From Clostridia bacterium (GTDB taxonomy: Bacteria > Bacillota > Clostridia > RUG12999), in NCBI GenBank assembly GCA_017396395.1, contig JAFQMF010000018.1, positions 25,945-89,944 on the forward strand: a stretch of DNA of 64,000 bases, written 5' to 3'. A program made the position numbers and the translations under genes. The stretch's first letter is position 1. Every line of letters begins with the position of its first letter. The notes under the pieces are model-generated. The model did not search any database, was not told where the DNA came from, and worked only from the letters and a program-made list of their open reading frames with translations. This document shows positions 2,253 to 56,355 of this stretch, one piece after another.

Positions 2253-2981
2253 ATGAAAAAATTTTGTAATTTTAAAGAGTACATAATACTTAAAATTTGC
2301 AGTGCAATAAATATAAAATCCCAAAGTGAGGATGGTATTTTTTATGTGTGCGGAAGTGATGTTCTTCCCCCGCCTTTAGAACCCGAAGAAGAGGCAAAAC
2401 TGATTTTGAAGCTTTCAGATGACAGAGAAGATATAAGACAAATTCTTATTGAGCGAAACCTTCGTCTTGTGGTGTATATAGCACGAAAATTCGAATCCAG
2501 CGGTGTGGGAATTGAAGATTTGGTTTCCATAGGTGCTATTGGTTTGATAAAAGCTATAAACACCTTTAAAGCAGATAAAAATATTAAGCTTGCCACCTAC
2601 GCTTCCAGATGTATTGAAAATGAGATTTTAATGTTTCTTCGTAAAAATACTTTAAGAAAAAATGAGGTTTCTATTGATGAGCCTCTTAATACCGATTGGG
2701 ACGGCAACGAACTTTTACTCTCAGATGTACTGGGAACTGACAGGGATATTATAAGCAAAAATATTGAGGAGGAAACTGACCGTCAGTTATTGTATAGTGC
2801 CATATCAGGTCTTGCAAAAAGAGAGCGTACCATTATGGAGCTTCGTTTCGGACTGGCAGGAAAAACCGAAAAAACGCAAAAAGAGGTAGCAGATATGCTG
2901 GGCATTTCCCAATCCTATATTTCAAGGCTGGAAAAGCGTATTATCTCACGCCTTAAAAAAGAAATAAACAAGCTTATTTGA
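2253..2981 (+). CDS. sigE: sporulation sigma factor SigE (pro-sigma-E)
   Basis: 242 aa. N-terminal pro-sequence, then sigma-70 region 2 ([25 protein letters not shown]) and region 4 HTH ([21 protein letters not shown]). Follows spoIIGA. Confidence 0.9.
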
Positions 2982-3164
2982 AGCTTTTGAGAAAGTTTAA
3001 AAATCAAGAAAAATCTAAGCTTTATTGAGCTTTTTTACTCTTTTAAATGATGTTGACTGTAAATTGAAAGAGAAAAAACCTATACTGCAAAAAAACAGCT
3101 TTCTAAAAAGCGAAAGAAAAAAGCTGATACAAATAAAAAAACCTCAGTTTTTGGCGGAAAAATA

Positions 3165-3193
3165 TTGACAAAATTTAAAAACCGCAGTATAAT
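3165..3193 (+). promoter_or_regulatory. sigma-A type promoter of the T-box operon
   Basis: TTGACA (3165-3170), 17-nt spacer, TATAAT (3188-3193). Confidence 0.7.
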
Positions 3194-3199
3194 AGTAGT

Positions 3200-3497
3200 A
3201 TATAAATGCGAAGACCGAAAACAAGTAGGTTGATTTTGATGCTACAGCAGGACTTTCCTGCTATCAGAGATTTGCCGGTTGGTGCAAGGCAATGGCTATA
3301 TATTTTAACCGAATACATTTCGAGAGCAGTGCACCGAAAAAGCGTTTTGCTTAAAGTAGGATGCAACGGGAGTTCCCGTCACAGAACAAGGGTTTGTTGG
3401 AACCTGCAAAGGTTTGCACCGTGAGATGCAAACGAACTGAGGTGGTACCACGGCATATACGCCGTCCTCTGTTAAAATCAGAGGACGGTTTTTTTAT
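3200..3497 (+). promoter_or_regulatory. T-box riboswitch leader, specifier probably UAC (Tyr)
   Basis: AGTA box 3224-3227; AGAGA bulge 3266-3270; GGTGCAA distal loop 3281-3287; specifier loop GAA-UAC-A 3311-3317; T-box sequence AACGAACTGAGGTGGTACCACGG 3431-3453; terminator GCCGTCCTCTG-ttaaaat-CAGAGGACGG plus T-run 3461-3497. Confidence 0.8.
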
Positions 3498-3528
3498 ATC
3501 CTCCTCCAACAGAAAGGGATTAATAAAA

Positions 3529-5052
3529 ATGGCAGTGAAAATTTTAATGTTGGTAGTTTTCTTTTGTACTATGATTGGGGTAGGCTTTTACTGTAAAAAG
3601 CATACCACTGATGTAAAAGGCTTTGTACTGGGAGGTCGTAATGTAGGTCCCTGGCTTACTGCTTTTGCATATGGTACTTCCTACTTCTCCGCAGTAATTT
3701 TCGTGGGCTACGCAGGTCAGTTTGGCTGGAAGTTTGGTATTGCTTCTACATGGATAGGTCTTGGTAACGCCATTATAGGCTCACTTCTTGCTTGGATAGT
3801 TTTAGGCAGACGCACACGTTTGCAGACTCAGCATCTTCACACATCTACCATGCCAGAATATTTTGGCAAGCGTTTTAACAGCACTGCTCTTAAAATAGTG
3901 GCATCTGGTATTGTGTTTGTATTTTTAATTCCTTATACCGCTTCCCTTTATAACGGTCTTTCACGGCTTTTTGAAATGGCGTTTGACGGCATTTCATATA
4001 ATGTATGTGTAATTGTAATGGCTGTCCTTACAGGAATTTACGTTATTGCAGGGGGATATATGGCAACTGCAATTAATGATTTTATTCAGGGAATTGTTAT
4101 GATTATAGGTATTGTAGCAGTTATTGGTGCAGTACTTTCAGGTCACGGTGGATTTATGGCATCTTTAAAGGAATTATCACAGGTTGAGCACGAAATTCCC
4201 GGTGCATACGCCTCCTTCTTTGGCCCTGACCCCTTTGGGCTTTTATGCGTTGTGATTTTAACTTCTCTTGGCACTTGGGGACTTCCTCAGATGGTACAAA
4301 AATTTTACGCAATAAAAAGCGAAAAGAATATTTCAAAGGGTACTATTATTTCTACAGTATTTGCTATTATTGTAGCAGGTGGCTGTTATTTTCTTGGGGG
4401 CTTCGGAAGAATTTCCGGTGTTGCAGTAGAAGGCGGAAACCCTGTTGGGGGATTTGATACAATTATTCCTCAGATGCTAGGCGGACTTGGAGATGTGCTT
4501 ATTGGTATTGTAATTGTACTTGTACTTTCCGCATCAATGTCCACACTTTCCTCATTAGTACTTACATCAAGTTCAACTTTAACCCTTGATATGATAAGAA
4601 AACACATTATAAAAAATATGTCAGATAAAAAACAGGTTTTTACTATGAGAATTTTTGTTGTAGTATTTATTATAATTTCTGCAGTAATTGCTATTAACAA
4701 AGATAAACTGGGTTATATCGCAGATATGATGGGTATTTCCTGGGGTGCTCTTGCAGGTGCATTTCTTGCTCCCTTCTTATACGGTTTGTACTTTAAATGG
4801 GTAACAAAGCTTGCTGTTTGGGTGAACTTTATTTTCGGTTCAGGACTTATGGTTGCAAATATGCTGTTTAGAAACAATTTCCCAACTGCATTACAGTCAC
4901 CTATTAACTGCGGTGCGGTAGCTTTACTTGCTGGTATGGTAATTGTTCCTTTAGTAAGTCTTATTTCTAAAAAACCTGAAAATGTTGAAGAAATGTTTGT
5001 CTGCTACGAAGAAAAGGTTACCGTTCCTGTTAAAAAGGCACTTGGAGAATAA
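3529..5052 (+). CDS. sodium:solute symporter (SSS) family transporter
   Basis: ATG at 3529 with RBS AGAAAGGGA. 507 aa, polytopic, SSS-like N-terminal region (GGRNVGPWLTAFAYGTSYFSAVIFVGYAG). The 56 upstream codons in the ORF track (from 3361) are the T-box leader. Confidence 0.8.
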   Translation: MAVKILMLVVFFCTMIGVGFYCKKHTTDVKGFVLGGRNVGPWLTAFAYGTSYFSAVIFVGYAGQFGWKFGIASTWIGLGNAIIGSLLAWIVLGRRTRLQTQHLHTSTMPEYFGKRFNSTALKIVASGIVFVFLIPYTASLYNGLSRLFEMAFDGISYNVCVIVMAVLTGIYVIAGGYMATAINDFIQGIVMIIGIVAVIGAVLSGHGGFMASLKELSQVEHEIPGAYASFFGPDPFGLLCVVILTSLGTWGLPQMVQKFYAIKSEKNISKGTIISTVFAIIVAGGCYFLGGFGRISGVAVEGGNPVGGFDTIIPQMLGGLGDVLIGIVIVLVLSASMSTLSSLVLTSSSTLTLDMIRKHIIKNMSDKKQVFTMRIFVVVFIIISAVIAINKDKLGYIADMMGISWGALAGAFLAPFLYGLYFKWVTKLAVWVNFIFGSGLMVANMLFRNNFPTALQSPINCGAVALLAGMVIVPLVSLISKKPENVEEMFVCYEEKVTVPVKKALGE

Positions 5053-5095
5053 ACTTTAAAGTAAGTTTTTAAACTGTGAAAGGCTCTGAATAAAA

Positions 5096-5887
5096 ATGGT
5101 TATAGATTTTCATACTCACTGCTTTCCTGAAAAAATAGCAGAGAGAGCTGTAAATACTTTAAAATATTCCGCAGGGGGACTTATCCCCCGCAACGATGGC
5201 AGTATATCGGGACTTTTAAATAATATGAAAGAAGATGGTGTGGATATTTCGGTGGTAATGAATATTGCCACAAATCCCCGTCAGCAACACTCTGTAAATG
5301 ATTTTGCCCGTGAGCAGAATGAAACTGAAGGCATATTGGCTTTTGGCTCGGTACATCCGGATGCAGAGGATGCTCTTTGCGAACTTGAGCGAATTAAAGA
5401 TATGGGCTTAAAGGGCATTAAACTGCACCCTGAATATCAGGAGTTTTATGCAGATGATGAAAAGCTTATTCCCTTATACAAAAAGGCATCAAGTCTTGGT
5501 CTAATTGTTCTTTTTCATGCAGGATGCGATTTTGGATTCGGCACTCCCTACCATGGTATGCCGGAAAATCTTGTAAAGGCTTTAAAGTACCTTGATACTC
5601 CTGTAGTGGCTGCCCATTGGGGCGGACTTACCTGTCATGAAGAGGTTTTAAAGCATCTGGCGGGACTTCCAATATATTTTGATACCTCATTTTCTCACGG
5701 AATAGTGGCAAAACCAATGATACAGCGAATTGTGGAAAAGCATGGCACAGATAAGCTTCTTTTTGGGTCGGATTCTCCCTGGCACAGGCCATGTGAGGAT
5801 AAGCTTTTAATTGAAAGTCTTGACCTTTCAGACAGTGATAAAGAAAGAATTTATTATAAAAATGCAGTAGAACTTTTAAAAATATAG
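5096..5887 (+). CDS. amidohydrolase-2 / TIM-barrel metal-dependent hydrolase family protein
   Basis: 263 aa. N-terminal IDFHTHCF (HxH metal ligands), internal HPEYQ and HAG.., C-terminal GSDSPW, typical of the Amidohydro_2 fold. Confidence 0.65.
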   Translation: MVIDFHTHCFPEKIAERAVNTLKYSAGGLIPRNDGSISGLLNNMKEDGVDISVVMNIATNPRQQHSVNDFAREQNETEGILAFGSVHPDAEDALCELERIKDMGLKGIKLHPEYQEFYADDEKLIPLYKKASSLGLIVLFHAGCDFGFGTPYHGMPENLVKALKYLDTPVVAAHWGGLTCHEEVLKHLAGLPIYFDTSFSHGIVAKPMIQRIVEKHGTDKLLFGSDSPWHRPCEDKLLIESLDLSDSDKERIYYKNAVELLKI

Positions 5888-5914
5888 AGATTGTAACAGA
5901 AAGGGGTTATAGCT

Positions 5915-7555
5915 ATGATTATAACCGATTTACTTGAGAGAAATGCAAAGGAATATAAGGATGAGGTAGCTTTAATTGAAATTGCTCCTCAGCTTATGGA
6001 GGGTGCAAAGGTAACCTGGAAGGAATATGCACTTATTCAGCCAAATACCACCGAGCCTGTGCGTGAAGAGCTTACTTGGGGCGAATTTGATAAAAAAGCA
6101 AACCGATTTGCAAACCTTCTTTTAAGCCGTGGCATAAAAAAGGGCGATAAGGTTGCAATACTTCTTATGAACTGTCTTGAGTGGCTTCCTATTTATTTTG
6201 GCACATTAAAGGCAGGTGCTTTGGCAGTACCTCTTAATTACAGATATACCGCTCAGGAAATAAAATATTGCGTAGATTTATCCGATTCTGATGTGCTGGT
6301 TTTCGGCCCTGAATTTATAGGCAGAGTGGAAGAAATTTACGACAGAATTCCAAAGGTTAAGCAGGTATTTTATGTGGGAGAAAACTGTCCTACCTTTGCA
6401 GAAAGCTACAATAAGCTTGTAACCTATTGCTCATCTAAAGCTCCTGATATAAAAATTACACAGCAGGACGATGGTGCAATCTATTTTTCCTCAGGCACAA
6501 CAGGCTTTCCAAAAGCAATTTTACACAAGCATTTAAGTCTTATACATTCTGCCAAAACAGAGCAGGCACATCACGGTCAGAACCGTAACGACTGCTTCCT
6601 TTGTATTCCCCCTCTTTATCATACAGGGGCAAAAATGCATTGGTTTGGCTCACTTTATGCAGGTAGTAAGGCGGTGCTTTTAAAGGGCGTTAAGCCTGAA
6701 TGGATACTTCGTGCCGCATCTGAAGAAAAATGTACTATAGTGTGGCTGTTAGTACCCTGGGCACAGGATATTTTAGACAGCATTGACAGAGGGGAAATCA
6801 GTCTTGATGATTATGACCTTTCTAACTGGCGGTTAATGCATATAGGTGCTCAGCCTGTACCCCCCAGTCTTATTTCCCGTTGGAAAAAGCATTTTCCCCT
6901 TCACAGCTATGATACCAACTATGGTCTTAGTGAATCTATCGGACCAGGCTGTGTGCATCTTGGAGTGGAAAATATTCATAAAGTGGGTGCTATCGGCAAG
7001 GCAGGTTACGGCTGGGAAGTTAAAATCTGCAACGAAAATGGCGTAAGTGTGAAAAAAGGAGATGTAGGCGAGCTTGCAGTTAAAGGTCCAGGTGTTATGA
7101 CCTGTTACTATAATGACGAAAAGGCTACAAACGAGGTTCTTCGTGATGGGTGGCTGTTTACAGGAGATATGGCAAGAGAGGACGAGGACGGTTTCATTTT
7201 CCTTGTAGATAGGAAAAAGGACGTTATAATTTCAGGTGGCGAAAACCTGTATCCTGTACAGATTGAGGACTTTTTAAGAGCCTGTCCACATATTAAAGAC
7301 GTTGCTGTTATCGGTCTTCCGGATAGCCGTCTTGGAGAAATTGCGGCAGCTATAATTGAGCTTAAGCCCGAATGTATGAATATTACAGAAGAAGATATTA
7401 CGGAGTTCTGTCACGAGCTTCCTAAATATAAAAGACCACGAAAGATTATTTTTGCTGATGTTCCCAGAAATCCTACAGGCAAGATTGAAAAACCAAAGCT
7501 TCGTGAGATGTACTGCGGACAAAGCCTTGTTGCTCAGCAAAACGAGATAAATTAA
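5915..7555 (+). CDS. AMP-dependent acyl-CoA synthetase/ligase (ANL superfamily)
   Basis: 546 aa. AMP-binding motif SSGTTGFPK, YHTGA, GDMAREDEDGF, C-terminal PRNPTGKIEKPKLR. Confidence 0.8.
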   Translation: MIITDLLERNAKEYKDEVALIEIAPQLMEGAKVTWKEYALIQPNTTEPVREELTWGEFDKKANRFANLLLSRGIKKGDKVAILLMNCLEWLPIYFGTLKAGALAVPLNYRYTAQEIKYCVDLSDSDVLVFGPEFIGRVEEIYDRIPKVKQVFYVGENCPTFAESYNKLVTYCSSKAPDIKITQQDDGAIYFSSGTTGFPKAILHKHLSLIHSAKTEQAHHGQNRNDCFLCIPPLYHTGAKMHWFGSLYAGSKAVLLKGVKPEWILRAASEEKCTIVWLLVPWAQDILDSIDRGEISLDDYDLSNWRLMHIGAQPVPPSLISRWKKHFPLHSYDTNYGLSESIGPGCVHLGVENIHKVGAIGKAGYGWEVKICNENGVSVKKGDVGELAVKGPGVMTCYYNDEKATNEVLRDGWLFTGDMAREDEDGFIFLVDRKKDVIISGGENLYPVQIEDFLRACPHIKDVAVIGLPDSRLGEIAAAIIELKPECMNITEEDITEFCHELPKYKRPRKIIFADVPRNPTGKIEKPKLREMYCGQSLVAQQNEIN

Positions 7556-7569
7556 GGGAGGTATATAAA

Positions 7570-9303
7570 ATGCAAAAGTTGTTACTTGGAAATGCGGCAG
7601 TTGCAAGAGGTGCTTATGAAGCAGGCGTAACTGTTGTATCTTCTTATCCCGGTACTCCCAGTACCGAAATTACTGAAAATATTGTTTCATATCCTGAAAT
7701 ATATGCAGAGTGGGCACCTAATGAAAAGGTTGCTGCTGAGGTTGCTATCGGTGCATCCATTGCAGGAGCAAGAGCAATGTCCTGTATGAAGCATGTAGGT
7801 ATGAATGTTATGGCCGATCCTATGTTTACAGTTAGCTATATTGGGGTAAACGGCGGACTTGTATTCTGTGTTGCAGACGACCCTGGTATGCACTCTTCCC
7901 AGAATGAACAGGATTCAAGACATTATGCACAGGCTTCTAAAATTCCTATGCTTGAACCTTCTGACTCTCAGGAATGCAAGGAGTTTACAAAACTTGCTTA
8001 CTCCCTTTCTGAGGAGTTTGACACTCCCTTTATTATCCGACTTTCTACCAGAGTTTCTCACTCACAGAGTATGGTTAAGCTGCAGGAAAGAGAAAGCTAT
8101 AATTTAAAGGATTACGAAAAAAACATTGGAAAAAATGTTATGATGCCTGCAAATGCAGTTAAGCGTCATATTGAAGTAGAGAAGAGAACTGCAAAGCTTA
8201 TAGAGTATGCAGAAACCTGTCCTTTAAATATCGAAGAAATAAATGAAGGAAAAATCGGTGTTATCACTTCAGGAATTTCCTATATGTATGCAAAAGAAGC
8301 ACTTGGGGACAAGGTAAGTTATTTAAAACTTGGACTTGCATGGCCTATGCCTGAAGAAAAAATTAAGGCTTTTGCAAAGAAATTTGACAAGGTTTATGTA
8401 ATTGAAGAGCTTGACCCTGTAATAGAAAATCATTGTAAGGCTCTTGGTGTTAAAGTAATCGGCAAGGATGTATTTACTCTTCTTGGAGAATATACCCCTG
8501 CTATGATAAAAGAGCAGGTGCTGGGCGAAGGCGTGCCTGAATTTACAGCTTTAGAGGAACAAATCCCTGTTCGTCCACCTGTTATGTGTGCAGGCTGTCC
8601 ACACAGAGGAACATTTTATGTACTTAAAAAATTAGGACTTGTAGTATCAGGAGATATTGGCTGTTATACTCTGGGAGCTGTGGCTCCACTTGCAAGTGTT
8701 GATACTACCATCTGTATGGGTGCATCTGTTTCTGCAGCTCTTGGTATGGCAAAAGCAAGAGGAGATGAGTGGAGTAAAAAGCTTGTTAGCGTTATAGGTG
8801 ATTCCACCTTTATGCACTCAGGTATTACAGGCCTTATTGATATTGTATATAATAAGGGTATAAACACCGTTATAATTCTTGATAACTCCATTACAGGTAT
8901 GACAGGACATCAGGAAAATCCCACCACAGGTAAAACAATTCGCGGTGAAGCTACCAAACAGGTTGATCTGCTTGCTCTTTGCAAAGCAGTGGGTGTAAAC
9001 AGAGTACGTATTGCTGACCCATTTGATGTTAAAACCTTTGAAGCGGTTGTTAAAGAAGAAACACAGGCAGAAGAACCTTCTGTAATTATTGCTCAGCGTC
9101 CGTGTGCTCTTTTAAAGACAGTTAAATATTCCGGTCACTGCACTATTACTGAAAACTGCAAAAAGTGTAAAATGTGTATGAAGCTTGGCTGTCCTGCAAT
9201 ATCTGCTGATGGCGATGGAGTTAAAATTGATTTAAATCAGTGCAACGGCTGCGGACTTTGCGTAAATGTATGTCCCTTTGATGCAATTAAGAAGGAGGAC
9301 TAA
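7570..9303 (+). CDS. iorA: indolepyruvate (arylpyruvate):ferredoxin oxidoreductase alpha subunit
   Basis: 577 aa. N-terminal LLGNAAVARGAYEAGV..SYPGTPSTE, TPP-binding region, C-terminal two 4Fe-4S motifs (CKKCKMCMKLGCP, CNGCGLCVNVCP). Confidence 0.85.
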   Translation: MQKLLLGNAAVARGAYEAGVTVVSSYPGTPSTEITENIVSYPEIYAEWAPNEKVAAEVAIGASIAGARAMSCMKHVGMNVMADPMFTVSYIGVNGGLVFCVADDPGMHSSQNEQDSRHYAQASKIPMLEPSDSQECKEFTKLAYSLSEEFDTPFIIRLSTRVSHSQSMVKLQERESYNLKDYEKNIGKNVMMPANAVKRHIEVEKRTAKLIEYAETCPLNIEEINEGKIGVITSGISYMYAKEALGDKVSYLKLGLAWPMPEEKIKAFAKKFDKVYVIEELDPVIENHCKALGVKVIGKDVFTLLGEYTPAMIKEQVLGEGVPEFTALEEQIPVRPPVMCAGCPHRGTFYVLKKLGLVVSGDIGCYTLGAVAPLASVDTTICMGASVSAALGMAKARGDEWSKKLVSVIGDSTFMHSGITGLIDIVYNKGINTVIILDNSITGMTGHQENPTTGKTIRGEATKQVDLLALCKAVGVNRVRIADPFDVKTFEAVVKEETQAEEPSVIIAQRPCALLKTVKYSGHCTITENCKKCKMCMKLGCPAISADGDGVKIDLNQCNGCGLCVNVCPFDAIKKED

Positions 9304-9307
9304 TTCT

Positions 9308-9874
9308 ATGACTAAAAATATTATGATTGTAGGTGTTGGCGGTCAGGGAACACTTCTTGCCAGCCGAATACTTGGAAACACTGTAATAAATGAAGGTTAT
9401 GATGTGAAAGTTTCCGAAGTTCACGGAATGAGTCAGCGTGGCGGAAGTGTTGTAACCTATGTAAAATATGGCGATAAGGTGTATTCTCCCATTATTGACA
9501 GAGGAGAGGCAGATATTATCCTTGCTTTTGAAAATCTTGAAGCTTACAGAAGCCTTCCTTTTCTTAAAAAGGGCGGAAAAATAATAATCAATAATCAGGA
9601 AATGAATCCTATGCCTGTAATTACTGGTGTGGCAAAATATCCTGAAAATATTACTGACAAAATTGCAGATATGGCAGATGCAACTGTGGTGGATGCAGTT
9701 ACTCTTGCAAAACAGGCAGGCAATATTAAGTCTGTTAATGTTGTTTTAATTGGTGTTATGGCAAAATCTACTGATATTGCATATGAAAAATGGATTAAAA
9801 CAATTAAAGAAACTGTTCCCGAAAAATTTGTTGATGTAAATATTAAGGCATTTGACCTTGGATATAATCTGTAA
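9308..9874 (+). CDS. iorB: indolepyruvate:ferredoxin oxidoreductase beta subunit
   Basis: ATG 9308 behind RBS AAGAAGGAGGA. IMIVGVGGQGTLLASRILG is the gamma-domain signature of 2-oxoacid oxidoreductases. The ORF-track start at 9266 overlaps iorA and is less likely. Confidence 0.85.
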   Translation: MTKNIMIVGVGGQGTLLASRILGNTVINEGYDVKVSEVHGMSQRGGSVVTYVKYGDKVYSPIIDRGEADIILAFENLEAYRSLPFLKKGGKIIINNQEMNPMPVITGVAKYPENITDKIADMADATVVDAVTLAKQAGNIKSVNVVLIGVMAKSTDIAYEKWIKTIKETVPEKFVDVNIKAFDLGYNL

Positions 9875-9892
9875 AAAGTGAGATGATTTTAA

Positions 9893-11203
9893 ATGGAAAG
9901 ATATTATCAGGAAAGCATTGAAACTGCCTCCTATGAGCAGATAAAAAAGTGGCAGAGCGAAAGACTTGTTAAAACAATTAACCATGTTTATGAAAATAAT
10001 AAGTATTACCGCAATCTTATGGATGAAAAAGGAATTACACCCGATGATATTAAAGGCGTTGAGGACTTGCACAAGCTTCCTTTCTTAACAAAGGATGACC
10101 TTAGAAAAGCATATCCCTACGGACTTATGTCCAAGCCTTTGTCTGAATGCGTGCGTATCCAGTCCACCAGTGGAACAACTGGTAAACGAGTTGTTGCTTT
10201 TTATACTCAGCATGATATTGACCTTTGGGAAGAATGCTGTGCCAGAGCTATTGTTGCAGCAGGAGGAACTAAGGACGATGTGTGTCAGGTATGCTATGGA
10301 TACGGGTTGTTTACCGGAGGTCCCGGTCTTAACGGCGGTTCTCACAAGGTTGGCTGTCTTACACTTCCTATGTCCTCAGGAAACACAGATCGTCAGCTTC
10401 AGTTTATGACAGACTTAGAAGCTACTATTCTTTGCTGTACTCCTTCTTACGCTGCATATCTTGCAGAAAGCATTCATGAAGCAGGTATCCGTGACCAGAT
10501 TAAACTTAAAGCGGGTATTTTCGGTGCAGAAGCATGGACAGAAGAAATGCGTCACGATATTGAAGAAAAATTAGGCATTAAAGCTTATGATATTTACGGA
10601 CTTACTGAAATTTGCGGTCCCGGTGTTGCTTTTGAGTGTAGCGCGCAGGCAGGTATGCATATTAACGAGGACCACTTTATTGCAGAAATTATCAACCCCG
10701 AAACAGGTGAGGTATTACCTGAGGGAGAAAAGGGCGAATTAGTATTTACTTGTATTACAAAGGAAGCTTTCCCTGTAATCAGATATAGAACAAAGGATAT
10801 TTGTGTGCTTACCCGTGAAAAATGCTCCTGCGGAAGAACTCTTATTAAAATGGCAAAGCCTATGGGCAGAAGTGACGATATGATGATTATTCGTGGTGTA
10901 AATGTGTTCCCCTCACAAATCGAAGAGGTTCTGCTTAAGGTAAGCGGTGGTGACCTTACTCCCAACTATCAGATTATTGTTGACCGTGTAAATAATACCG
11001 ATACTCTTGATATCAATGTTGAAATGAGCAATAATATTTTCTCAGATGACATTAAAACTATTCAGGCAATTGAAAAGAAAATTGTTGAAAAGCTCAGAAG
11101 TGTTCTTGGTATTGGTGCAAAGGTACATCTTGTTAATCCAAAAACAATTGAACGCAGTGAAGGTAAGGCAAAGCGTGTAATTGATAACAGAAAGCTTGTA
11201 TAA
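9893..11203 (+). CDS. paaK: phenylacetate-CoA ligase family (arylacetate-CoA ligase)
   Basis: 436 aa. LPFLTKDDLR, STSGTTGKRVV and the C-terminal KAKRVIDNR pattern typical of PaaK-type ligases. Adjacent to iorAB. Confidence 0.85.
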   Translation: MERYYQESIETASYEQIKKWQSERLVKTINHVYENNKYYRNLMDEKGITPDDIKGVEDLHKLPFLTKDDLRKAYPYGLMSKPLSECVRIQSTSGTTGKRVVAFYTQHDIDLWEECCARAIVAAGGTKDDVCQVCYGYGLFTGGPGLNGGSHKVGCLTLPMSSGNTDRQLQFMTDLEATILCCTPSYAAYLAESIHEAGIRDQIKLKAGIFGAEAWTEEMRHDIEEKLGIKAYDIYGLTEICGPGVAFECSAQAGMHINEDHFIAEIINPETGEVLPEGEKGELVFTCITKEAFPVIRYRTKDICVLTREKCSCGRTLIKMAKPMGRSDDMMIIRGVNVFPSQIEEVLLKVSGGDLTPNYQIIVDRVNNTDTLDINVEMSNNIFSDDIKTIQAIEKKIVEKLRSVLGIGAKVHLVNPKTIERSEGKAKRVIDNRKLV

Positions 11204-11221
11204 AATAAAGGAGAATATGTT

Positions 11222-11653
11222 ATGTATATTAAACAGTTGTCGGTATTTATTGAAAATAAAGCAGGCAGACTTGCTGAAGCGTTAAAGGTACTTAGTGACA
11301 ATGGAATTGATATCAGCGCTTTATCTATTGCAGACACCTCCGAGTTCGGAATTTTAAGAATGATTGTATCAGACCCGGCTCTTGCAAAAGAGAAGCTTTT
11401 TGAAAGCGGAGTTATTGTTAAAACAACTGAAGTTATGGGTATTGTTTTAGAAGATAAGCCAGGTTCTCTGGCAAATGTTGTGGCACTTTTAGCGGATAAC
11501 GGAATTGTTGTTGAATATGCTTACGCGTTCCTTGGTTGTGACAAGGAAAAAGCTCTTGTGGTAATCAGTGTGGACAATCAGGAGGGTGCTGTAGAAATTC
11601 TTAAAAATTCAGGAGTTACTACCATAAATCCTTCGGATATTTACAGGGTGTAA
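11222..11653 (+). CDS. ACT domain-containing protein
   Basis: 143 aa with two tandem ACT-like halves (LSVFIENKAGRLAE.. and GIVLEDKPGSLANV..). Last gene of the operon. Confidence 0.75.
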   Translation: MYIKQLSVFIENKAGRLAEALKVLSDNGIDISALSIADTSEFGILRMIVSDPALAKEKLFESGVIVKTTEVMGIVLEDKPGSLANVVALLADNGIVVEYAYAFLGCDKEKALVVISVDNQEGAVEILKNSGVTTINPSDIYRV

Positions 11654-11756
11654 AAACAATATAGGTTAAAAAAACGCAGGATTTTGATATTCATTTATAC
11701 TCATTCAATCATCTTTTTTGACATTACATTGGATTTCCCCTTTTCACTCGGTAAAA

Positions 11757-11806
11757 GCCGAATATAACTGCGTAGCAATATAACTTGCCGTAGGCAAATA
11801 TAACAG
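11757..11806. repeat. three imperfect tandem units each containing AATATAAC
   Basis: AATATAAC at 11761-11768, 11777-11784 and 11797-11804; units resemble GC(C)GTAG(G)CAA(A)TATAAC. Confidence 0.5.
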
Positions 11807-11847
11807 AAAAAAAGACATTATTCTTAAAGAATAATGTCTTTTTTTCT
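11806..11847. terminator. bidirectional intrinsic terminator ending the ior/paaK operon
   Basis: A-run, then palindrome AAGACATTATTC..GAATAATGTCTT, then a T-run. Confidence 0.8.
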
Positions 11848-12011
11848 GGGTAAGAATGCATATTTTGATACAAATTGTTCAGCGTGTATAATTGGTTGCA
11901 TAGTGACCTTCATTTAAGAAATGGTGACCATCACCTGGATTTTTGATACTTATTGTATGTAGACTAATTGTATTCAAAAATATATAATATTCATATTAGG
12001 GGGGTGTTTTT

Positions 12012-12221
12012 ATGGACATTGTAAAAGTTTTTGGAAATAACCTTAAAAAATATCGTACAGCTATGGGTATCTCGCAAGAAGCGTTTGCAGATAAATGTGG
12101 TATGCATCGCACCTATATTAGTGCAATCGAATGTTATCGCAGAAGCATCTCTCTTGAAAATATTCAACGTATTGCTGATGCTTTGGAAATTGATACTTAT
12201 AAGTTATTCAAGGAGGATTAA
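12012..12221 (+). CDS. XRE-family HTH controller (C) protein of a restriction-modification system
   Basis: 69 aa. Typical C-protein pattern LKKYR..GISQEAFADKCGMHRTYISAIE....SLENIQRIADAL. Its 3' end contains the RBS (AAGGAGGA) of the nuclease gene, which starts 2 nt after the stop. Confidence 0.8.
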   Translation: MDIVKVFGNNLKKYRTAMGISQEAFADKCGMHRTYISAIECYRRSISLENIQRIADALEIDTYKLFKED

Positions 12222-12223
12222 AA

Positions 12224-12826
12224 ATGAAGGTAACAAAGACGAACTTGTTTTTAAAGTTAGCAAATCCAGACAAAAATGGTATAAGCAGATGGGTAAGCGT
12301 AACGGAGTTTGTGGGAGAATACGCTGAACTTAAATTTGGTAACGGAGCTTCTTGGGCAAGAAAAGAATCAACTCTTGCTAAGAAATACATAATAGAATTT
12401 GACAAATCCATCACTTCTGGCAATGGAATAGACCGTTTAAGACTAAATGGATTTAATGATGGGGATTATTCCCAACACATCCGAGCGGATATTAAGAAAA
12501 CTATCGGAGCACAACGCTGTGTTGTATTAGGCACATCAAAGCCGGAAGTTGATCACAAAAACGGAATGAAAAACGAAGATAGAGTTATGCGTAATGAAGA
12601 TCAAAAACTTTCTGATTTTCAACCATTAAGCAAGGCTGCGAATGATGCAAAACGTCAATATTGTAAAGAGTGCCGCAGAACTGGAATTAGATATGATGCT
12701 AAAAAATTAGGATATCCTATGTCTTATTATGCTGGAGGAGCTAAACATAATATGGAAGAGGATGCCTGTGTGGGATGTTATTGGTACGACCCACTGGAGT
12801 TCAAAAAACATTTAAAGCAAAAATAA
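12224..12826 (+). CDS. putative Type II restriction endonuclease, HNH (beta-beta-alpha-Me) fold with Cys4 zinc site
   Basis: 200 aa. EVDHKNG...N...FQPLSKAANDAKRQ reads as an HNH motif, followed by CKEC ... CVGC. Translationally coupled to the C gene and convergent with two DNA MTases. Confidence 0.6.
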   Translation: MKVTKTNLFLKLANPDKNGISRWVSVTEFVGEYAELKFGNGASWARKESTLAKKYIIEFDKSITSGNGIDRLRLNGFNDGDYSQHIRADIKKTIGAQRCVVLGTSKPEVDHKNGMKNEDRVMRNEDQKLSDFQPLSKAANDAKRQYCKECRRTGIRYDAKKLGYPMSYYAGGAKHNMEEDACVGCYWYDPLEFKKHLKQK

Positions 12827-12830
12827 TGCA

Positions 12831-12861
12831 AAAGGTGAAGTAGAGCGACTACTTCACCTTT
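12831..12861. terminator. bidirectional hairpin between the convergent nuclease and methylase genes
   Basis: AAAGGTGAAGTAG-agcga-CTACTTCACCTTT. The 3' arm overlaps the last codons and stop of the minus-strand MTase. Confidence 0.65.
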
Positions 12862-13634
12862 TTGAATATAAATATGTATTCGTGGTCAAACAAATAGAAA
12901 TCACTTGCTAATGCTCTATAACGCCATATTGCTTCTTGATTTAATTTTCCTTTTGTTCTATCGAAATTTTTAACAAGAATTGCTTTCATCATAAATCCTC
13001 TTTCAAGAAAAAGATTCATACAATGGAAACCCAATGGAACGATTTGGCTGTTGGCATATTTGTCTCCCATAACAACAGCACAATATCTGTTTTTTTCCAA
13101 ATATTGAGTTGTATTATCAATAACTTGCCCGAATGAACTTAAGAATCCTTCTAATGATTCTTCATTAGAGAGGTCTTCCGAATTTTCTGAAAATTTAATT
13201 ATATCCCAATAAGGAGGATGCATAATAGCAAACTGATATTTTTTAATCCCGTATTTCCCTAACAATTCAGGCATATTAATACTTTTACTATTACCCACAA
13301 CAACATTAGTTGAGCATTCAGAATTCTTCTCAAGCATCATTCTCTCGTATGCTTCTTTCGCTATATTTGGTTGTAATTCAATGCCGATAGAATTACGCCC
13401 CATTCGCTGTGCTTCAATAAGGGAAGTTCCGCTCCCCATAAAAGGGTCAAGAATCCAATCACCTTTTTTTGTATATCTTTTATAAAGCTGACGCGGAACT
13501 TGAGGAATGAAGTTTCCGTGATAGTTTGCATTGTGAACCCCTGAATTTTCTCGTTTGAACGACCACAAAGATGTAGTTAAAATGTCGGTGTATTCACGCC
13601 ATTTTTTAGGGTCTAAATCATTATACCAAGCCAT
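12849..13634 (-). CDS. DNA N4-cytosine/N6-adenine methyltransferase (N6_N4_Mtase-like)
   Basis: SAM motif LDPFMGSGTSLIEA preceded by an FP..L..R.I-like block; catalytic-type tetrapeptide HPPY (FAIMHPPYWD). Preferred start is ATG 13634 (RBS AAGGAG, 1 nt after the upstream stop); the ORF-track start is 13661. Confidence 0.7.
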   Translation of the reverse strand: MAWYNDLDPKKWREYTDILTTSLWSFKRENSGVHNANYHGNFIPQVPRQLYKRYTKKGDWILDPFMGSGTSLIEAQRMGRNSIGIELQPNIAKEAYERMMLEKNSECSTNVVVGNSKSINMPELLGKYGIKKYQFAIMHPPYWDIIKFSENSEDLSNEESLEGFLSSFGQVIDNTTQYLEKNRYCAVVMGDKYANSQIVPLGFHCMNLFLERGFMMKAILVKNFDRTKGKLNQEAIWRYRALASDFYLFDHEYIFIFKKVK

Positions 13635-15043: not shown

Positions 15044-15130
15044 TGGTGCCGGTGGTGGGACTTGAACCCACACGATGTTGCCATCAACGGATTTTGAGTC
15101 CGTCACGTCTGCCAATTCCATCACACCGAC
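15044..15130 (-). tRNA. tRNA-Leu (anticodon CAA), class II with long variable arm, CCA encoded
   Basis: Reverse complement reads GTCGGTG..TGGCAGA..anticodon loop CT-CAA-AA..long variable arm..GGTTCAAGTCCCACCACCGGCACCA. The acceptor stem pairs with one G-U. Confidence 0.85.
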
Positions 15131-35426: not shown

Positions 35427-35447
35427 AAATAATAGAAAACTGAATAA

Positions 35448-35608
35448 GACCACAGGGGAGCTATATGCTGAGAGGAAACCTTAAGGTTTCGACCCTTAAC
35501 CTGATTTGGATAATGCCAACGTAGGGATGTAGTTAAAAATCTTTTAAAATAAATAAAAATGATTTATTTATACCGAAAGACCCTATTTTGTGCGTCTTTC
35601 GGTTTTTT
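35448..35608 (+). promoter_or_regulatory. TPP (THI-box) riboswitch with terminator expression platform
   Basis: CACAGGGGAGC..CTGAGAG..ACCCTTAACCTGATTTGGATAATGCCAACGTAGGGA, then terminator CCGAAAGAC-N12-GTCTTTCGG plus TTTTTT (35573-35608). Confidence 0.9.
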
Positions 35609-51522: not shown

Positions 51523-53220
51523 TTAATCCTTGTTTTTTGCTTTTTCCATATCCGCTTTTCTTATTTCCGTACGGCGGATTTTACCGCTGAAGGTTTTAGG
51601 AAGAGAATCAACAAACTCAATAATTCTTGGGTATTTATAAGGAGCAGTATTCTTTTTTACATAAGTCTGAAGCTCTTTTATAAGCTCCTCACTGCCTTCA
51701 TACCCTTTTTGAAGAACAATTGTTGCTTTTACATTAAATCCTCGAACAGGGTCAGGCACTCCAGTTACAGCAACCTCTAAAACTGAGGGATGCTCCATAA
51801 GCACGCTTTCAATTTCAAAGGGTCCTATACGATAGCCTGAAGATTTAATAACATCATCATTTCTTCCTACATAATGGAAAATACCCTCTTCATCACGATA
51901 TGCAGTATCTCCAGTATGATAAAATCCGTGGTGAATTGCCTTTTTAGTATCAGCATCACTGAAATTGTATCCCGTCAGTACTCCGCAAGGGTGGGTTTGT
52001 TTGCTTTCATATCTTATACAAATTTCCCCTGTTGTACCTCTGGGACAGTGATTTCCTTTTTCATCTATTACATGAACATCAAGTCCCGGAACAGGAAGTC
52101 CCATAGCACCCGGAACAGGCTTGCTCCAAGGGTAAAGGGTTGCAAGACAAACAGGTGTTTCGCTCTGACCGAAGCCTTCGTAAATCTCCAGTCCTGTTGC
52201 CTCTTTCCATTTATTAAAAATTTCAGGATTAAGTGCTTCTCCCGCTGTACAGCAGTGCTTAATGGAAGAAAGGTCATACTTACTTACATCATTTTGTAAA
52301 ATAAATCTGTACATTGTAGGTGGTACACAGAAGGTAGTAATTTTATATTTTTCCAGTTTGGATAAAATATCTGCTCCGTCAAACTTTTCAAAGTCATAAA
52401 CAAAAAGTGCAGTTTCTCCAAACCACTGTCCGTAAAATTTTCCCCACATACATTTCATCCAGCCTGAGTCGGAAATGGTAAAATGCAACCCTCCGTCAAT
52501 AACTCTGTGCCAGAAAACGCCTGTCATAATATGACCAAGAGGATATGTAAAATCGTGAGAAATAATTTTAGGATATCCTGTTGTACCTGAAGAAAAGGCA
52601 ATCATACTGGTATCTGTTGCTTTAGTGGCATCTTCCCCTACAGGTCTTTGCCAGTCATCAGAAAACTTTGAATATTCCTCCTCAAAATCTATCCAGCCTT
52701 CACACTTTTTGCCTTTTGTTACCATTTTAAGTGTAACTGTCTCGTATTTTCCTTCTGCTTCATCAAAATACTCTGTACACTGTCCGTCACCTGTAATAAT
52801 TACACATTTTACCTTAGCGGCGTTACAGCGATACTCATAATCCTTTGCTTTAAGCATATTTGTGGCAGGAATTACAACTGCCCCTATTTTATGAAGAGCT
52901 AAGGTGATAAACCAGAAAAGATAGCTTCTTTTAAGTACAAGAAGAACCCCGTCACCCTTTTTAATTCCTTTACTTTTCAGATAATTTGCCACCCTGCTGG
53001 ACTCCAGCATAAAATCACGGAAGGTAAACCGCTTTTCCTCTCCCTGGTCAGAAACCCAGAGCATAGCAAGCTTATCGGGCTTAGTAGTGCCAAGCTCGTC
53101 AATTACATCATAGGCAAAGTTAAAGTCCTGCCCATATATTAACTTGTAATTTTCCTGAGCATCCTTAAGTGATGTAAAATCATCCCGATGCTTCCCGATA
53201 TATTTTTCGTAAATAGGCAT
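51523..53220 (-). CDS. AMP-forming acyl-CoA synthetase (medium/short-chain type)
   Basis: 565 aa. AMP-binding motif SSGTTGYPK, YHTGDTAYRDEEG, C-terminal SGKIRR. Confidence 0.8.
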   Translation of the reverse strand: MPIYEKYIGKHRDDFTSLKDAQENYKLIYGQDFNFAYDVIDELGTTKPDKLAMLWVSDQGEEKRFTFRDFMLESSRVANYLKSKGIKKGDGVLLVLKRSYLFWFITLALHKIGAVVIPATNMLKAKDYEYRCNAAKVKCVIITGDGQCTEYFDEAEGKYETVTLKMVTKGKKCEGWIDFEEEYSKFSDDWQRPVGEDATKATDTSMIAFSSGTTGYPKIISHDFTYPLGHIMTGVFWHRVIDGGLHFTISDSGWMKCMWGKFYGQWFGETALFVYDFEKFDGADILSKLEKYKITTFCVPPTMYRFILQNDVSKYDLSSIKHCCTAGEALNPEIFNKWKEATGLEIYEGFGQSETPVCLATLYPWSKPVPGAMGLPVPGLDVHVIDEKGNHCPRGTTGEICIRYESKQTHPCGVLTGYNFSDADTKKAIHHGFYHTGDTAYRDEEGIFHYVGRNDDVIKSSGYRIGPFEIESVLMEHPSVLEVAVTGVPDPVRGFNVKATIVLQKGYEGSEELIKELQTYVKKNTAPYKYPRIIEFVDSLPKTFSGKIRRTEIRKADMEKAKNKD

Positions 53221-53251
53221 TGTACTGTCGTCCTTTTGTTTTTTTAGTTTT

Positions 53252-53806
53252 TTACGGTTTTATAACTACCGCAATAAATTTGGTGGGCTTATCACCAATT
53301 GCAATTTCTGCGTGAGGAAGGCTGGAATCAAAATACACACTGTCTCCTGCCTCCAGCACATAGGAAATATCTCCTATAAAAAACTGCATTTTCCCTGAAA
53401 CAACATAATCAAACTCCTGTCCTTTATGAGTATTCATAACAGGAGGCTCATCTGTAGGGTCAACTGTAACCATAAAAGGCTCAGCCATTTTATTGCGGAA
53501 GGTAAAGGCAAGGTGCTTATAGTTATATCTTGAATTTCTTTTTACTCTATAACCTTCACCTTTTTTTACTACACTGCACATTGAAAGTGTAGGGGAATCG
53601 CCTGACATAAGGTCAAGAACATCCACCCCGAAAATATCTGCCAGCTTGCATAGAAAGGAAATAGAAAAGTCCTTTTTTCCCTCTTCATATTCTTCATATT
53701 CTTCAGTTGATATTTCCATTTGATTTGCTACTTCCTCCAGTGATAAATCGCATATATCACGAAGAGAAGCAATTCTCATTGCAATATCCTTTAACTGATC
53801 TGCCAT
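53252..53806 (-). CDS. XRE-family HTH plus cupin domain transcriptional regulator
   Basis: Preferred ATG 53806 (RBS GGAG 7 nt upstream); the ORF track starts at 53848. N-terminal HTH (LSLEEVANQMEIS), C-terminal cupin (GDSVYFDSSLPH). Confidence 0.75.
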   Translation of the reverse strand: MADQLKDIAMRIASLRDICDLSLEEVANQMEISTEEYEEYEEGKKDFSISFLCKLADIFGVDVLDLMSGDSPTLSMCSVVKKGEGYRVKRNSRYNYKHLAFTFRNKMAEPFMVTVDPTDEPPVMNTHKGQEFDYVVSGKMQFFIGDISYVLEAGDSVYFDSSLPHAEIAIGDKPTKFIAVVIKP

Positions 53807-54002
53807 AAAAATCTCCATTCCGCCGCCTTGCATCGGCATAACTCGCAATTAAATTTATCTCTTATCTGCAAGGCAAAGTAATGATAAGAGATTTTAAATT
53901 ACATCGCCGTATCGCACTTTGAGTGCATAAATTTCGGCGGTGTTGTTTAATCCGCCGAAGGCTGGGTGTAAAAGGAGCTTTTACACTGTCACCTGTAAAA
54001 AA

Positions 54003-54533
54003 TCAGTAGTTATATCCAAGTTCAAGAGCACGAAGGTTAGGCTCTAAAAGATGCTGTTTCTTTGCAGGAACAAGCTTTTTCATTGTAGCCTCTAAATTTT
54101 CGTGTGGGCAAAGATTTGCTTTTTTAATGGCATGGCCTAAAATAATCATATTTGCAAGTCCTGCAAGATTTTCCTCTGAAGCAAGCTTAGTTGCAGGAAT
54201 GTAAAATGCATTAACATCTTCTCTTTCAACTTTACGGGAAATAAGAGAGCTATCTACAATTATAATACCGCCTGAAACTGTTTCATTTTCATATTTATCA
54301 AGAGAAGGTGCGTTCATTGCAATTAAAACATCAGGATTTGAAACGATAGGTGAGCCTACTTTAGTATCACTTAGTATAATACTGCAGTTAGCTGTACCAC
54401 CACGCATTTCAGGACCATAGGAAGGAAGCCAGCTAAGCTCTTTACCTTCTAAAAGACCTTCATATGCAAGGAATTTGCCTGAGAAGAGAATACCCTGTCC
54501 TCCAAAGCCTGCTATTAAAATCTGTGTTGTCAT
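54003..54533 (-). CDS. 2-oxoacid:ferredoxin oxidoreductase gamma subunit
   Basis: 176 aa. ILIAGFGGQGILFSGKFLA signature. Confidence 0.85.
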   Translation of the reverse strand: MTTQILIAGFGGQGILFSGKFLAYEGLLEGKELSWLPSYGPEMRGGTANCSIILSDTKVGSPIVSNPDVLIAMNAPSLDKYENETVSGGIIIVDSSLISRKVEREDVNAFYIPATKLASEENLAGLANMIILGHAIKKANLCPHENLEATMKKLVPAKKQHLLEPNLRALELGYNY

Positions 54534-55285
54534 TTTGCTTCTCCCTCCTCTTTGTACTTATCTTTATAAACTCCTAAGGGATAATATGGAATCATATTTT
54601 CTTCCAGCCAGCCAAGTGCCTTTGAAGGCTCTAAGCCCCAGTTTGTGGGACAAGTTGAAACAACCTCAACAAGGGAAAAGCCTTTTCCCTCTACCTGATT
54701 TTTGAATGCCTTTAAAATTGCCTTTTTAGCATTCTTAACATTTTTTACATTGTTTACAGCAACTCTTTCAAGGTATGTTGCACCATCAAGCTGTGAAAGC
54801 ATTTCACAAACCTTTACAGGATAACCTACCTTCTCAACATCACGTCCATAAGGAGAAGTCTGTGTAATCTGACCTGGTAATGTTGTGGGAGCCATCTGTC
54901 CGCCTGTCATACCGTAAATTGCATTATTTACGAAAATAACAGTAATGTTTTCTCCTCTTGCAGCAGAGTGAACTGTTTCAGCTGTTCCTATAGCTGCAAG
55001 GTCTCCGTCACCCTGATAAGTAAATACGATATTGTTAGGATCAGAGCGTTTTACGCCTGTAGCAACTGCAGGAGCACGTCCGTGAGCTGCCTGTACCATA
55101 TCAACATCAAAATAATTATATGCCATAACTGAGCAACCAACTGATGCAACACCGATTGTTCTGCCCTGAATACCCAGCTCGTCAATAGCTTCAGCAACAA
55201 GACGGTGGATTATACCATGTGTACAACCTGGGCAATAGTGCAAAGTAGCATCTGTAAGTGCTTTTGGTTTTTCAAAAACTATCAT
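54530..55285 (-). CDS. 2-oxoacid:ferredoxin oxidoreductase beta (TPP-binding) subunit
   Basis: 251 aa. CPGCTHG, GDGD...NN TPP motif (QGDGDLAAIG..FVNNAIYGMTGGQ). Confidence 0.85.
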   Translation of the reverse strand: MIVFEKPKALTDATLHYCPGCTHGIIHRLVAEAIDELGIQGRTIGVASVGCSVMAYNYFDVDMVQAAHGRAPAVATGVKRSDPNNIVFTYQGDGDLAAIGTAETVHSAARGENITVIFVNNAIYGMTGGQMAPTTLPGQITQTSPYGRDVEKVGYPVKVCEMLSQLDGATYLERVAVNNVKNVKNAKKAILKAFKNQVEGKGFSLVEVVSTCPTNWGLEPSKALGWLEENMIPYYPLGVYKDKYKEEGEAK

Positions 55286-56355
55286 TATTTTGCACCTCCA
55301 ACCTTTGTAGCTTCCATAATTTTGTTAAGTACATCCTCAGTAGTGGGAATCATACCGCCCACTCTGTTACAAAGAAGAACAGGCTTTGCACATCTTGTTG
55401 CAAGCTCAATATCTTCTACCATCTGTCCCATTGAAAGTTCAACGCTGACAAATGCATTAACTTTTTCAGAGGCTTTCAAAAGAGCCTTTTTGGGGAAGGG
55501 CCAAAGAGTGATAGGTCTTATCATACCCACCTTAATACCCTGTGCTCTTGCCTGGTCAATTGCATTTTGTGATACTCTTGATGCTACGCCGAAAGCTACA
55601 ATACAAATTTCAGCATCCTCCATCATATATTCGTCATACATAGCTTCTGTTTCTTCAATAGCTTTGTATTTTTCGTATCTTTCAAAGTTCTTAACCTCAA
55701 GCTCTTCAGGTTTTAAATAAAGAGAGTTTACAATATTGGGCTTTCTCTTAAGCTCTGTACCTGTAAGTGCCCAGGGTTTGTCGTACTGTTTGATTTCTCC
55801 CATATCAAGAGAAACAGGTTCCATCATCTGTCCCATAGTACCATCAGACAAAATCATAGCTGTCATTCTGTACTTTTCAGCAAGGTCAAAGCCTTTAAAT
55901 ACAAGACTTACCATTTCCTGAACAGAGTTGGGAGCAAGCACAAGCATATGGAAATCTCCATGTCCTGCACCTCTTGTTGCATGGAAATAATCAGACTGTG
56001 AAGGCTGAATACCACCAAGACCAGGTCCGCCTCTTTGTACGTTTACAATTAAAGCAGGGAGGTCACAGCCTGCAAGATAAGAAAGACCTTCACTCTTTAA
56101 GGATATACCTGGACTGGAGCTGGAGGTCATAACTCTTTTACCTGTAGCTGCAACACCGATAACCATATTAATAGCTGCAATTTCACTTTCCGCCTGAAGA
56201 AATACACCGCCATCAATTTTAGGCATTCTTTTGGACATATATGCGGCAACCTCAGTCTGAGGTGTGATAGGATAACCGAAATAATGACGGCAGCCTGCCA
56301 TAATAGCCGCTTCAGCAAGGGCTTCGTTGCCCTTCATTAAAACTTTATCAGACAT
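55285..56355 (-). CDS. 2-oxoacid:ferredoxin oxidoreductase alpha subunit
   Basis: 356 aa. MKGNEALAEAAIMAGC..YPITPQTE signature. Confidence 0.85.
   Translation of the reverse strand: MSDKVLMKGNEALAEAAIMAGCRHYFGYPITPQTEVAAYMSKRMPKIDGGVFLQAESEIAAINMVIGVAATGKRVMTSSSSPGISLKSEGLSYLAGCDLPALIVNVQRGGPGLGGIQPSQSDYFHATRGAGHGDFHMLVLAPNSVQEMVSLVFKGFDLAEKYRMTAMILSDGTMGQMMEPVSLDMGEIKQYDKPWALTGTELKRKPNIVNSLYLKPEELEVKNFERYEKYKAIEETEAMYDEYMMEDAEICIVAFGVASRVSQNAIDQARAQGIKVGMIRPITLWPFPKKALLKASEKVNAFVSVELSMGQMVEDIELATRCAKPVLLCNRVGGMIPTTEDVLNKIMEATKVGGAK

Follow-up and report, generated by a model that had tools for sequence, protein, structure and literature searches.

The iorAB and paaK genes of gut bacteria are routinely taken as a sign that phenylacetate, 4-hydroxyphenylacetate and indoleacetate, acids linked to host disease, are produced. 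Why would such genes be placed behind a T-box leader that reads a tyrosine codon? The question is raised by a 64,000-nucleotide stretch of a Clostridia genome (assembly GCA_017396395.1, contig JAFQMF010000018.1), referred to as a whole as the window. Here, a T-box leader precedes seven genes encoding, in order, a sodium:solute symporter of the SSF family, an Amidohydro_2 protein, an acyl-coenzyme A (CoA) ligase of the ANL superfamily, the two subunits of indolepyruvate:ferredoxin oxidoreductase (IOR), IorA and IorB, a PaaK-like phenylacetate-CoA ligase and an ACT-domain protein. The leader is a tyrosine-specific T-box, and the operon is likely to represent an aryl-acid salvage route that would supply tyrosine and phenylalanine under tyrosine shortage. 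The assembly (1.28 Mb, 92.6% complete) represents a spore-forming member of the Clostridia, with spoIIGA-sigE located directly upstream of the operon.

The T-box leader and its specifier codon

A cmscan search against Rfam matched the T-box model RF00230 at positions 3202-3472 of the plus strand with 108.5 bits (gathering score 93, E 4.8e-23), covering model positions 1-219 and thus the whole model. The initial annotation had described a complete T-box leader and had named this search as a check; the match confirms the description, with all named motifs and the terminator found where it had placed them. The elements of the leader are as follows, the AGUA, AGAGA, GGUGCAA and T-box motifs being located in the sequence itself.

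3165-3193, plus strand: sigma-70-type promoter, TTGACA-17 nucleotides (nt)-TATAAT, with 12/12 consensus matches; top site within 2900-13000
3202-3472, plus strand: T-box leader with Stem I, Stem II/IIA-B region, Stem III and antiterminator (RF00230 match)
3224-3227, plus strand: AGUA motif
3266-3270, plus strand: AGAGA motif
3281-3287, plus strand: GGUGCAA motif
3311-3317, plus strand: specifier loop GAA-UAC-A, with GAA at 3311-3313, UAC at 3314-3316 and A3317 (cmscan alignment)
3439-3453, plus strand: T-box sequence, containing the UGGU bulge
3443-3446, plus strand: UGGU within the antiterminator bulge, matching the ACCA 3' end of tRNA-Tyr by complementarity
3461-3496, plus strand: leader terminator; 11-pair stem (3461-3489), then a T-run (terminator scan)

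The leader shows the arrangement expected of a T-box: the AGUA/GAA S-turn is present, and a purine follows the codon directly before the closing helix. In the cmscan alignment, the 5' arm of the terminator stem also represents the 3' strand of the antiterminator, so that the two structures are mutually exclusive.

The reading of the specifier as UAC, already made in the initial annotation, was examined in a Stem I alignment of 17 leaders, consisting of the window leader and 16 orthologues from other species. AAUAC is invariant across all 17. The helix on the 3' side of the specifier, formed by UUUCG (3318-3322) and CGAAA (3216-3220), pairs in 95% of alignment cells, and each of its five pairs has undergone compensatory changes. 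Shifting the pairing partners by one column lowers overall pairing from 85% to 43-46%. This fixes the register and identifies the specifier as UAC. In the same genome, tRNA-Tyr carries the anticodon GUA and the discriminator A73 followed by CCA, matching both the UAC codon and the UGGU bulge. As tRNA-Phe also carries A73, tyrosine and phenylalanine are told apart by the codon alone. The genome contains three T-boxes in all, none detectable at tyrS, and the other two serve as an internal control, reading ACC where thrS follows and UGG where the next gene is TrpB-like. The presence of the T-box and its tyrosine specificity are secure. That it acts as a transcription-attenuating riboswitch with read-through dependent on tRNA-Tyr is predicted from these features and forms, together with the function proposed below, a single explanation that we hold to be probably correct as a whole.

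Stem I of the window leader also carries an additional hairpin of about 20 nt (3243-3263, AGCAGG...CCUGCU) between the upper helix and the AGAGA motif. This hairpin is missing in 16/16 aligned orthologous leaders.

The seven-gene operon and its products

The genes following the leader and the hairpin that likely ends the operon are listed below, with protein lengths in amino acids (aa).

3529-5052, plus strand: sodium:solute symporter, SSF family, 507 aa (PF00474, E 3.9e-56)
5096-5887, plus strand: Amidohydro_2 TIM-barrel metal enzyme, 263 aa (PF04909, 92.9 bits, gathering score 26.4)
5915-7555, plus strand: ANL-superfamily acyl-CoA ligase, 546 aa (PF00501 and PF13193)
7570-9303, plus strand: IorA, IOR alpha subunit with thiamine pyrophosphate (TPP) and 4Fe-4S domains (TIGR03336, 735.7 bits, cut-off 650.9)
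9308-9874, plus strand: IorB, IOR beta subunit (NF005325, 292.9 bits, cut-off 230)
9893-11203, plus strand: PaaK-like phenylacetate-CoA ligase, 436 aa (TIGR02155, 510.8 bits; PF14535, E 7.5e-33)
11222-11653, plus strand: ACT-domain-pair protein, 143 aa (PF19571, E 4e-30)
11804-11848, strand not assigned: palindromic hairpin, likely operon end, with a 20-pair stem and A-run and T-run arms

All seven genes lie on the same strand, separated by gaps of 43, 27, 14, 4, 18 and 18 nt in gene order. A terminator scan of all intergenic gaps in the operon found no terminator-like site, and the first strong hairpin after the leader is the one at 11804-11848. Both the close spacing and the lack of a T-run hairpin before approximately 11806-11847 had been pointed out in the initial annotation and hold here. 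This organization suggests that all seven genes are co-transcribed from the leader.

The symporter gene starts at 3529, correcting the start of 3361 given by the open reading frame (ORF) finder. Its product best matches PutP among NCBIfam models (205.6 bits, cut-off 515.5) and is not orthologous to PutP, PanF or ActP by curated cut-offs. Many loci hold the symporter and ANL ligase genes as a pair. Relatives of the ANL ligase at 72-85% identity are found in at least 80 species, and isolates of Ruminococcus flavefaciens and R. albus encode copies at 74-77% identity, where the adjoining genes are unrelated to the ligase. IorA and IorB both score above their NCBIfam equivalog cut-offs. The genome encodes one IorA, one PaaK and one ACT protein. 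The second ligase possesses the PaaK-type C-terminal domain PF14535 and is called PaaK-like because its TIGR02155 score lies under the equivalog cut-off of 646.3 bits. Its relatives at 71-76% identity have phenylalanine T-boxes.

The ACT gene adjoins the PaaK gene in 90 loci and is always a PaaK neighbour; its product is probably an amino-acid-binding regulator. A model of the PaaK-ACT complex (best control 0.00, runs agreeing on at least 83% of contacts, partner pLDDT, the predicted local distance difference test, at least 83) scored 0.36, at or below 0.60 and thus in a range that holds only 7 of the 80 solved complexes, yet both of the mismatches, among those reaching the mark. The mark itself is reached by 58/80 solved complexes and 2/110 mismatches. 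The model lends weak support to a contact between the two proteins.

The Amidohydro_2 protein was modeled with AlphaFold2 from a 29-sequence alignment at a mean pLDDT of 96.8. It adopts the TIM-barrel fold with the HxH/His/His/Asp metal ligands of the family (H6, H8, H141, H174 and D226), which are invariant together with K109 and H111. Structural matches to Amidohydro_2 structures reach Z-scores of 21-25, the best being the uncharacterised 3irs (Z 25.5) and 3cjp (Z 23.8), followed by aromatic-acid decarboxylases, LigJ, LigI and TatD-type enzymes; a sequence search of solved structures yielded remote matches only. The gene recurs beside IOR clusters in several gene orders. Most homologues occur in unrelated gene contexts, and the neighbours of ten homologues outside IOR clusters share no common theme. 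After these fold and context searches the protein stands, as in the initial annotation, without an assigned pathway step. One close structural cluster in the ESM Atlas (TM-score, the template modeling score, 0.96 by query) consists of 423-aa proteins in which the Amidohydro_2 fold is fused to a YbaK-type aminoacyl-tRNA editing domain. A role as a TatD-like D-Tyr-tRNA deacylase of the DTD3 type was considered and set aside: a canonical dtd gene is present, and the YbaK-fusion cluster is the only observation in its favour. It remains a lead.

Distribution of tyrosine and phenylalanine T-boxes and the proposed direction of the pathway

To place the operon among its relatives, we surveyed 160 species-representative loci, 80 fetched with the ANL ligase and 80 with PaaK. 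Where a T-box immediately precedes the ANL ligase or its symporter, the specifier is UAC in 18/18 cases, including seven directly before the ligase with no symporter between, all tyrosine-specific. T-boxes directly before PaaK-ACT read the phenylalanine codon UUC in 39/40 cases (38 by script, one by eye) and UGC in the remaining one. All 13 orthologous leaders submitted to Rfam scored above the gathering score. Tyrosine T-box operons range from the ANL ligase alone through ANL-SSF and SSF-ANL-IorAB up to the full seven genes, with the ANL ligase as the constant member. Most of them have no Amidohydro_2 gene, and in the minimal SSF-ANL-IorAB unit the ANL ligase occupies the place of PaaK. In eight clusters a phenylalanine T-box is inserted between iorB and paaK. 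One phenylalanine T-box operon has the gene order PaaK-ACT-pheA-aroB-aroC, its ACT-pheA gap being free of terminators, and the same order is found in loci L205 and L191.

Read from this partition, the ANL ligase, probably a 4-hydroxyphenylacetate-CoA ligase, would belong to the tyrosine branch and the PaaK-like ligase to the phenylalanine branch. The initial annotation had left the ANL ligase without a step, which the comparative pattern now tentatively supplies; its proposal of a salvage or biosynthetic function gains support from related PaaK-ACT units that stand under their own phenylalanine T-box and, in at least two genomes, share an operon with pheA-aroB-aroC.

Several T-boxes depart from the common pattern. 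The PaaK-ACT T-box reading UGC, a cysteine codon (L192:6093-6343), may stem from a recent point mutation or from faulty assembly; another T-box, in divergent orientation, occupies L192:5717-5959. In L186 (4666-4913) and L206 (around 4903), a tyrosine T-box precedes a second SSF symporter, more distantly related (41% identity to the window symporter) and located directly upstream of a phenylalanine T-box and PaaK-ACT, placing two differently tuned T-boxes in tandem. A T-box at L175:206-453, with 88 bits just under the gathering score, precedes a 766-aa fusion of helix-turn-helix, cupin and ANL ligase domains, a motif that recurs in L180, L181 and L184. By eye, its specifier is tentatively read as AUC-A (isoleucine) with a UGGU bulge, and the fusion may represent a T-box-gated 2-methylbutyrate ligase.

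The mechanism we propose would begin with the accumulation of uncharged tRNA-Tyr, whose GUA anticodon would pair with UAC in the specifier loop while its free ACCA end pairs with UGGU, blocking the terminator and allowing transcription of the seven-gene operon. The symporter would import aromatic monocarboxylates, and the ANL and PaaK-like ligases would convert 4-hydroxyphenylacetate and phenylacetate, respectively, to their CoA esters. IorAB, using reduced ferredoxin and CO2, would then reductively carboxylate the aryl-acetyl-CoA to 4-hydroxyphenylpyruvate or phenylpyruvate, from which a housekeeping aminotransferase would form tyrosine or phenylalanine. Seven class I/II aminotransferase matches are present in the genome, so this final step is available. 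The ACT protein would probably exert amino-acid feedback on PaaK. As PaaK-ACT follows iorB after an 18-nt gap without a leader of its own, the phenylalanine branch appears to be slaved to the tyrosine signal in this operon. The substrates and the role of the ACT protein are likewise predicted, and the direction of the IOR reaction is read solely from the regulation.

A number of observations weigh against the salvage reading. About 62 of the 80 ANL-bearing loci have no T-box, and none was found at any of the Lachnospiraceae and Ruminococcus copies checked. At gathering score, ten IOR-cluster loci including Lachnospiraceae copies had no T-box except for the Oscillospirales loci L004 and L006, and eight further ANL loci including two from Ruminococcus had none. 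The ANL ligase lacks close relatives of known function, its best solved homologue being FadD13 (254.5 bits). Contig 7 carries a de novo aro operon that appears complete (3-deoxy-D-arabino-heptulosonate 7-phosphate synthase, tyrA, aroB, aroA, aroC, pheA and aroE/K); this operon rules out salvage as the sole path to tyrosine, and the route would therefore be auxiliary and not needed for prototrophy. The symporter could transport tyrosine itself. Finally, weak promoter-like sites are present in two gaps (5891-5919 and 9878-9907, 9/12 matches each), making internal starts possible. These last points lead to an alternative in which the T-box serves only a tyrosine-importing symporter and the ligase, IOR and PaaK genes form a separate oxidative fermentation module reached by read-through or internal promoters. 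In its favour, the operon opens with the symporter, whose nearest curated family, PutP, is an amino-acid carrier (score below the cut-off), T-box-controlled transporters often import their cognate amino acid, and IOR is usually annotated as catabolic. Such an arrangement is nonetheless improbable given the seven tyrosine T-boxes that directly precede the ANL ligase, the lack of terminators in the gaps and the PaaK-ACT units under their own phenylalanine T-box in 39 loci, in at least two genomes joined to pheA-aroB-aroC. Both ligases are also AMP-forming by family, and AMP-forming ligases favour activation and do not yield ATP.

Salvage could also proceed from another tyrosine-related acid, with the ANL ligase acting on 3-(4-hydroxyphenyl)propionate, 4-hydroxyphenyllactate, p-coumarate or 4-hydroxybenzoate and the Amidohydro_2 protein helping to convert the CoA ester to an IOR substrate. 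This would fit the feruloyl-CoA and 4-coumarate-CoA ligases among the best solved relatives of the ANL ligase, an Amidohydro_2 fold family that includes aromatic-acid hydratases and decarboxylases, and the recurrence of that gene beside these clusters. We consider it unlikely, though somewhat less so than a symporter-only T-box, because IOR chemistry requires aryl-acetyl-CoA, tyrosine T-box operons mostly do without the Amidohydro_2 gene, down to the minimal unit, and its homologues belong for the most part to other contexts. An operon that runs oxidatively during starvation, gaining energy or balancing redox by turning aromatic 2-oxoacids into aryl-acetyl-CoA while the ligases are reversed or act on other substrates, is very improbable. 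The first description of IOR was of an enzyme working oxidatively, and published work on the gut attributes arylacetates to iorAB, but degrading tyrosine while tRNA-Tyr is uncharged makes no regulatory sense, and both the split between tyrosine-ANL and phenylalanine-PaaK units and the shared operon with pheA-aroB-aroC point to synthesis. Salvage of aryl-acetates, for which the comparative distribution of T-boxes provides good support, remains the reading we prefer.

A possible wider salvage network and relation to known systems

Elsewhere in the same genome (L003:1501-1758, contig 14), a tryptophan T-box with the specifier UGG and a UGGC bulge scores 78 bits, below gathering, and precedes a stand-alone TrpB-like pyridoxal phosphate enzyme (NF009057, 674 bits). 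The genome (92.6% complete) yielded no indole-3-glycerol-phosphate synthase gene, which suggests indole salvage and not a full trp pathway and fits a habit of T-boxes on precursor-salvage steps. On the minus strand of the window, a second ligase and oxidoreductase module (51523-56355) encodes VorB (524 bits, cut-off 399), beta and gamma 2-oxoacid:ferredoxin oxidoreductase subunits, an unknown 198-aa ORF and an MbcS-like branched-chain acyl-CoA synthetase (432 bits, below the cut-off). It looks like a branched-chain counterpart of the aryl-acid module; the Rfam scan found no T-box or other element before it. A TPP riboswitch is located at 35444-35545 of the plus strand (65 bits, gathering score 54.3). 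Just past the operon terminator, an IceA-family (PF05315) nuclease-like ORF (12224-12826, plus strand) belongs to a restriction-modification cassette, with a tRNA-Leu nearby at 15044-15130.

More speculatively, and with somewhat less than an even chance in our estimate, gut and rumen Clostridia may possess a modular salvage network gated by tRNA charging that runs amino-acid fermentation backwards, in which ANL units, with the ANL protein as 4-hydroxyphenylacetate-CoA ligase, serve tyrosine, PaaK-ACT units phenylalanine and a carboxylating IOR is shared, extending to tryptophan (through the TrpB-like enzyme) and perhaps isoleucine (through the helix-turn-helix, cupin and ligase fusion) and including the Amidohydro_2 protein as a new pathway enzyme.

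Reductive carboxylation of aryl acids in rumen bacteria has been seen since the 1960s, and Allison's work reportedly covered phenylalanine synthesis from phenylacetate in these organisms. To our knowledge, genes were never assigned to this rumen physiology, and the operon names candidates for it. Tyrosine and phenylalanine T-box control suggests that in many Oscillospirales the IorAB and PaaK genes consume aryl acids for amino-acid building. If true, the metagenomic abundance of iorAB and paaK would have to be interpreted differently. The T-box partition also provides a specific substrate prediction for the ANL ligase, a very abundant and highly conserved CoA ligase that has no name. Indolepyruvate and phenylacetate genes go unmentioned in the T-box regulon surveys PMC2494555 and PMC3766115, and a literature search for a T-box link to indolepyruvate, phenylacetate or ferredoxin oxidoreductase genes found no paper.

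Among known regulators, the window leader most resembles the class I transcriptional tyrosine T-boxes of the Bacillus subtilis tyrS type (RF00230). Common to both are a full Stem I with GA motif, the AGUA/GAA S-turn, UAC followed by a purine, the distal AGAGA and GGUGCAA motifs, a UGGN bulge fitting the tRNA discriminator and a competing terminator and antiterminator. In contrast, the window leader governs a ligase and IOR operon, neither tyrS nor a shikimate-pathway operon, and its Stem I carries the extra hairpin. T-boxes of the Bacillus cereus group on a tyrosine biosynthesis operon and on phenylalanine-4-hydroxylase (PMC2494555) similarly control an alternative tyrosine supply but act on hydroxylation or shikimate chemistry. 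Rumen cultures, according to PMC7356843, produce phenylalanine from phenylacetate; the proposed chemistry and the habitat are the same, whereas the checked Ruminococcus copies of the ANL ligase have no T-box and stand alone. The closest parallel in chemistry comes from Methanococcus maripaludis, in which, as outlined in PMC4162585 citing Porat et al., exogenous aryl acids are activated, carboxylated by IOR to arylpyruvates and fed into aromatic amino-acid synthesis, giving the organism a further route in addition to de novo synthesis. The aro operon of the Clostridia genome likewise stands alongside the proposed route. The window system, whose function is deduced from its regulation, differs in being bacterial, gated by tRNA charging and equipped with two dedicated ligase lineages.

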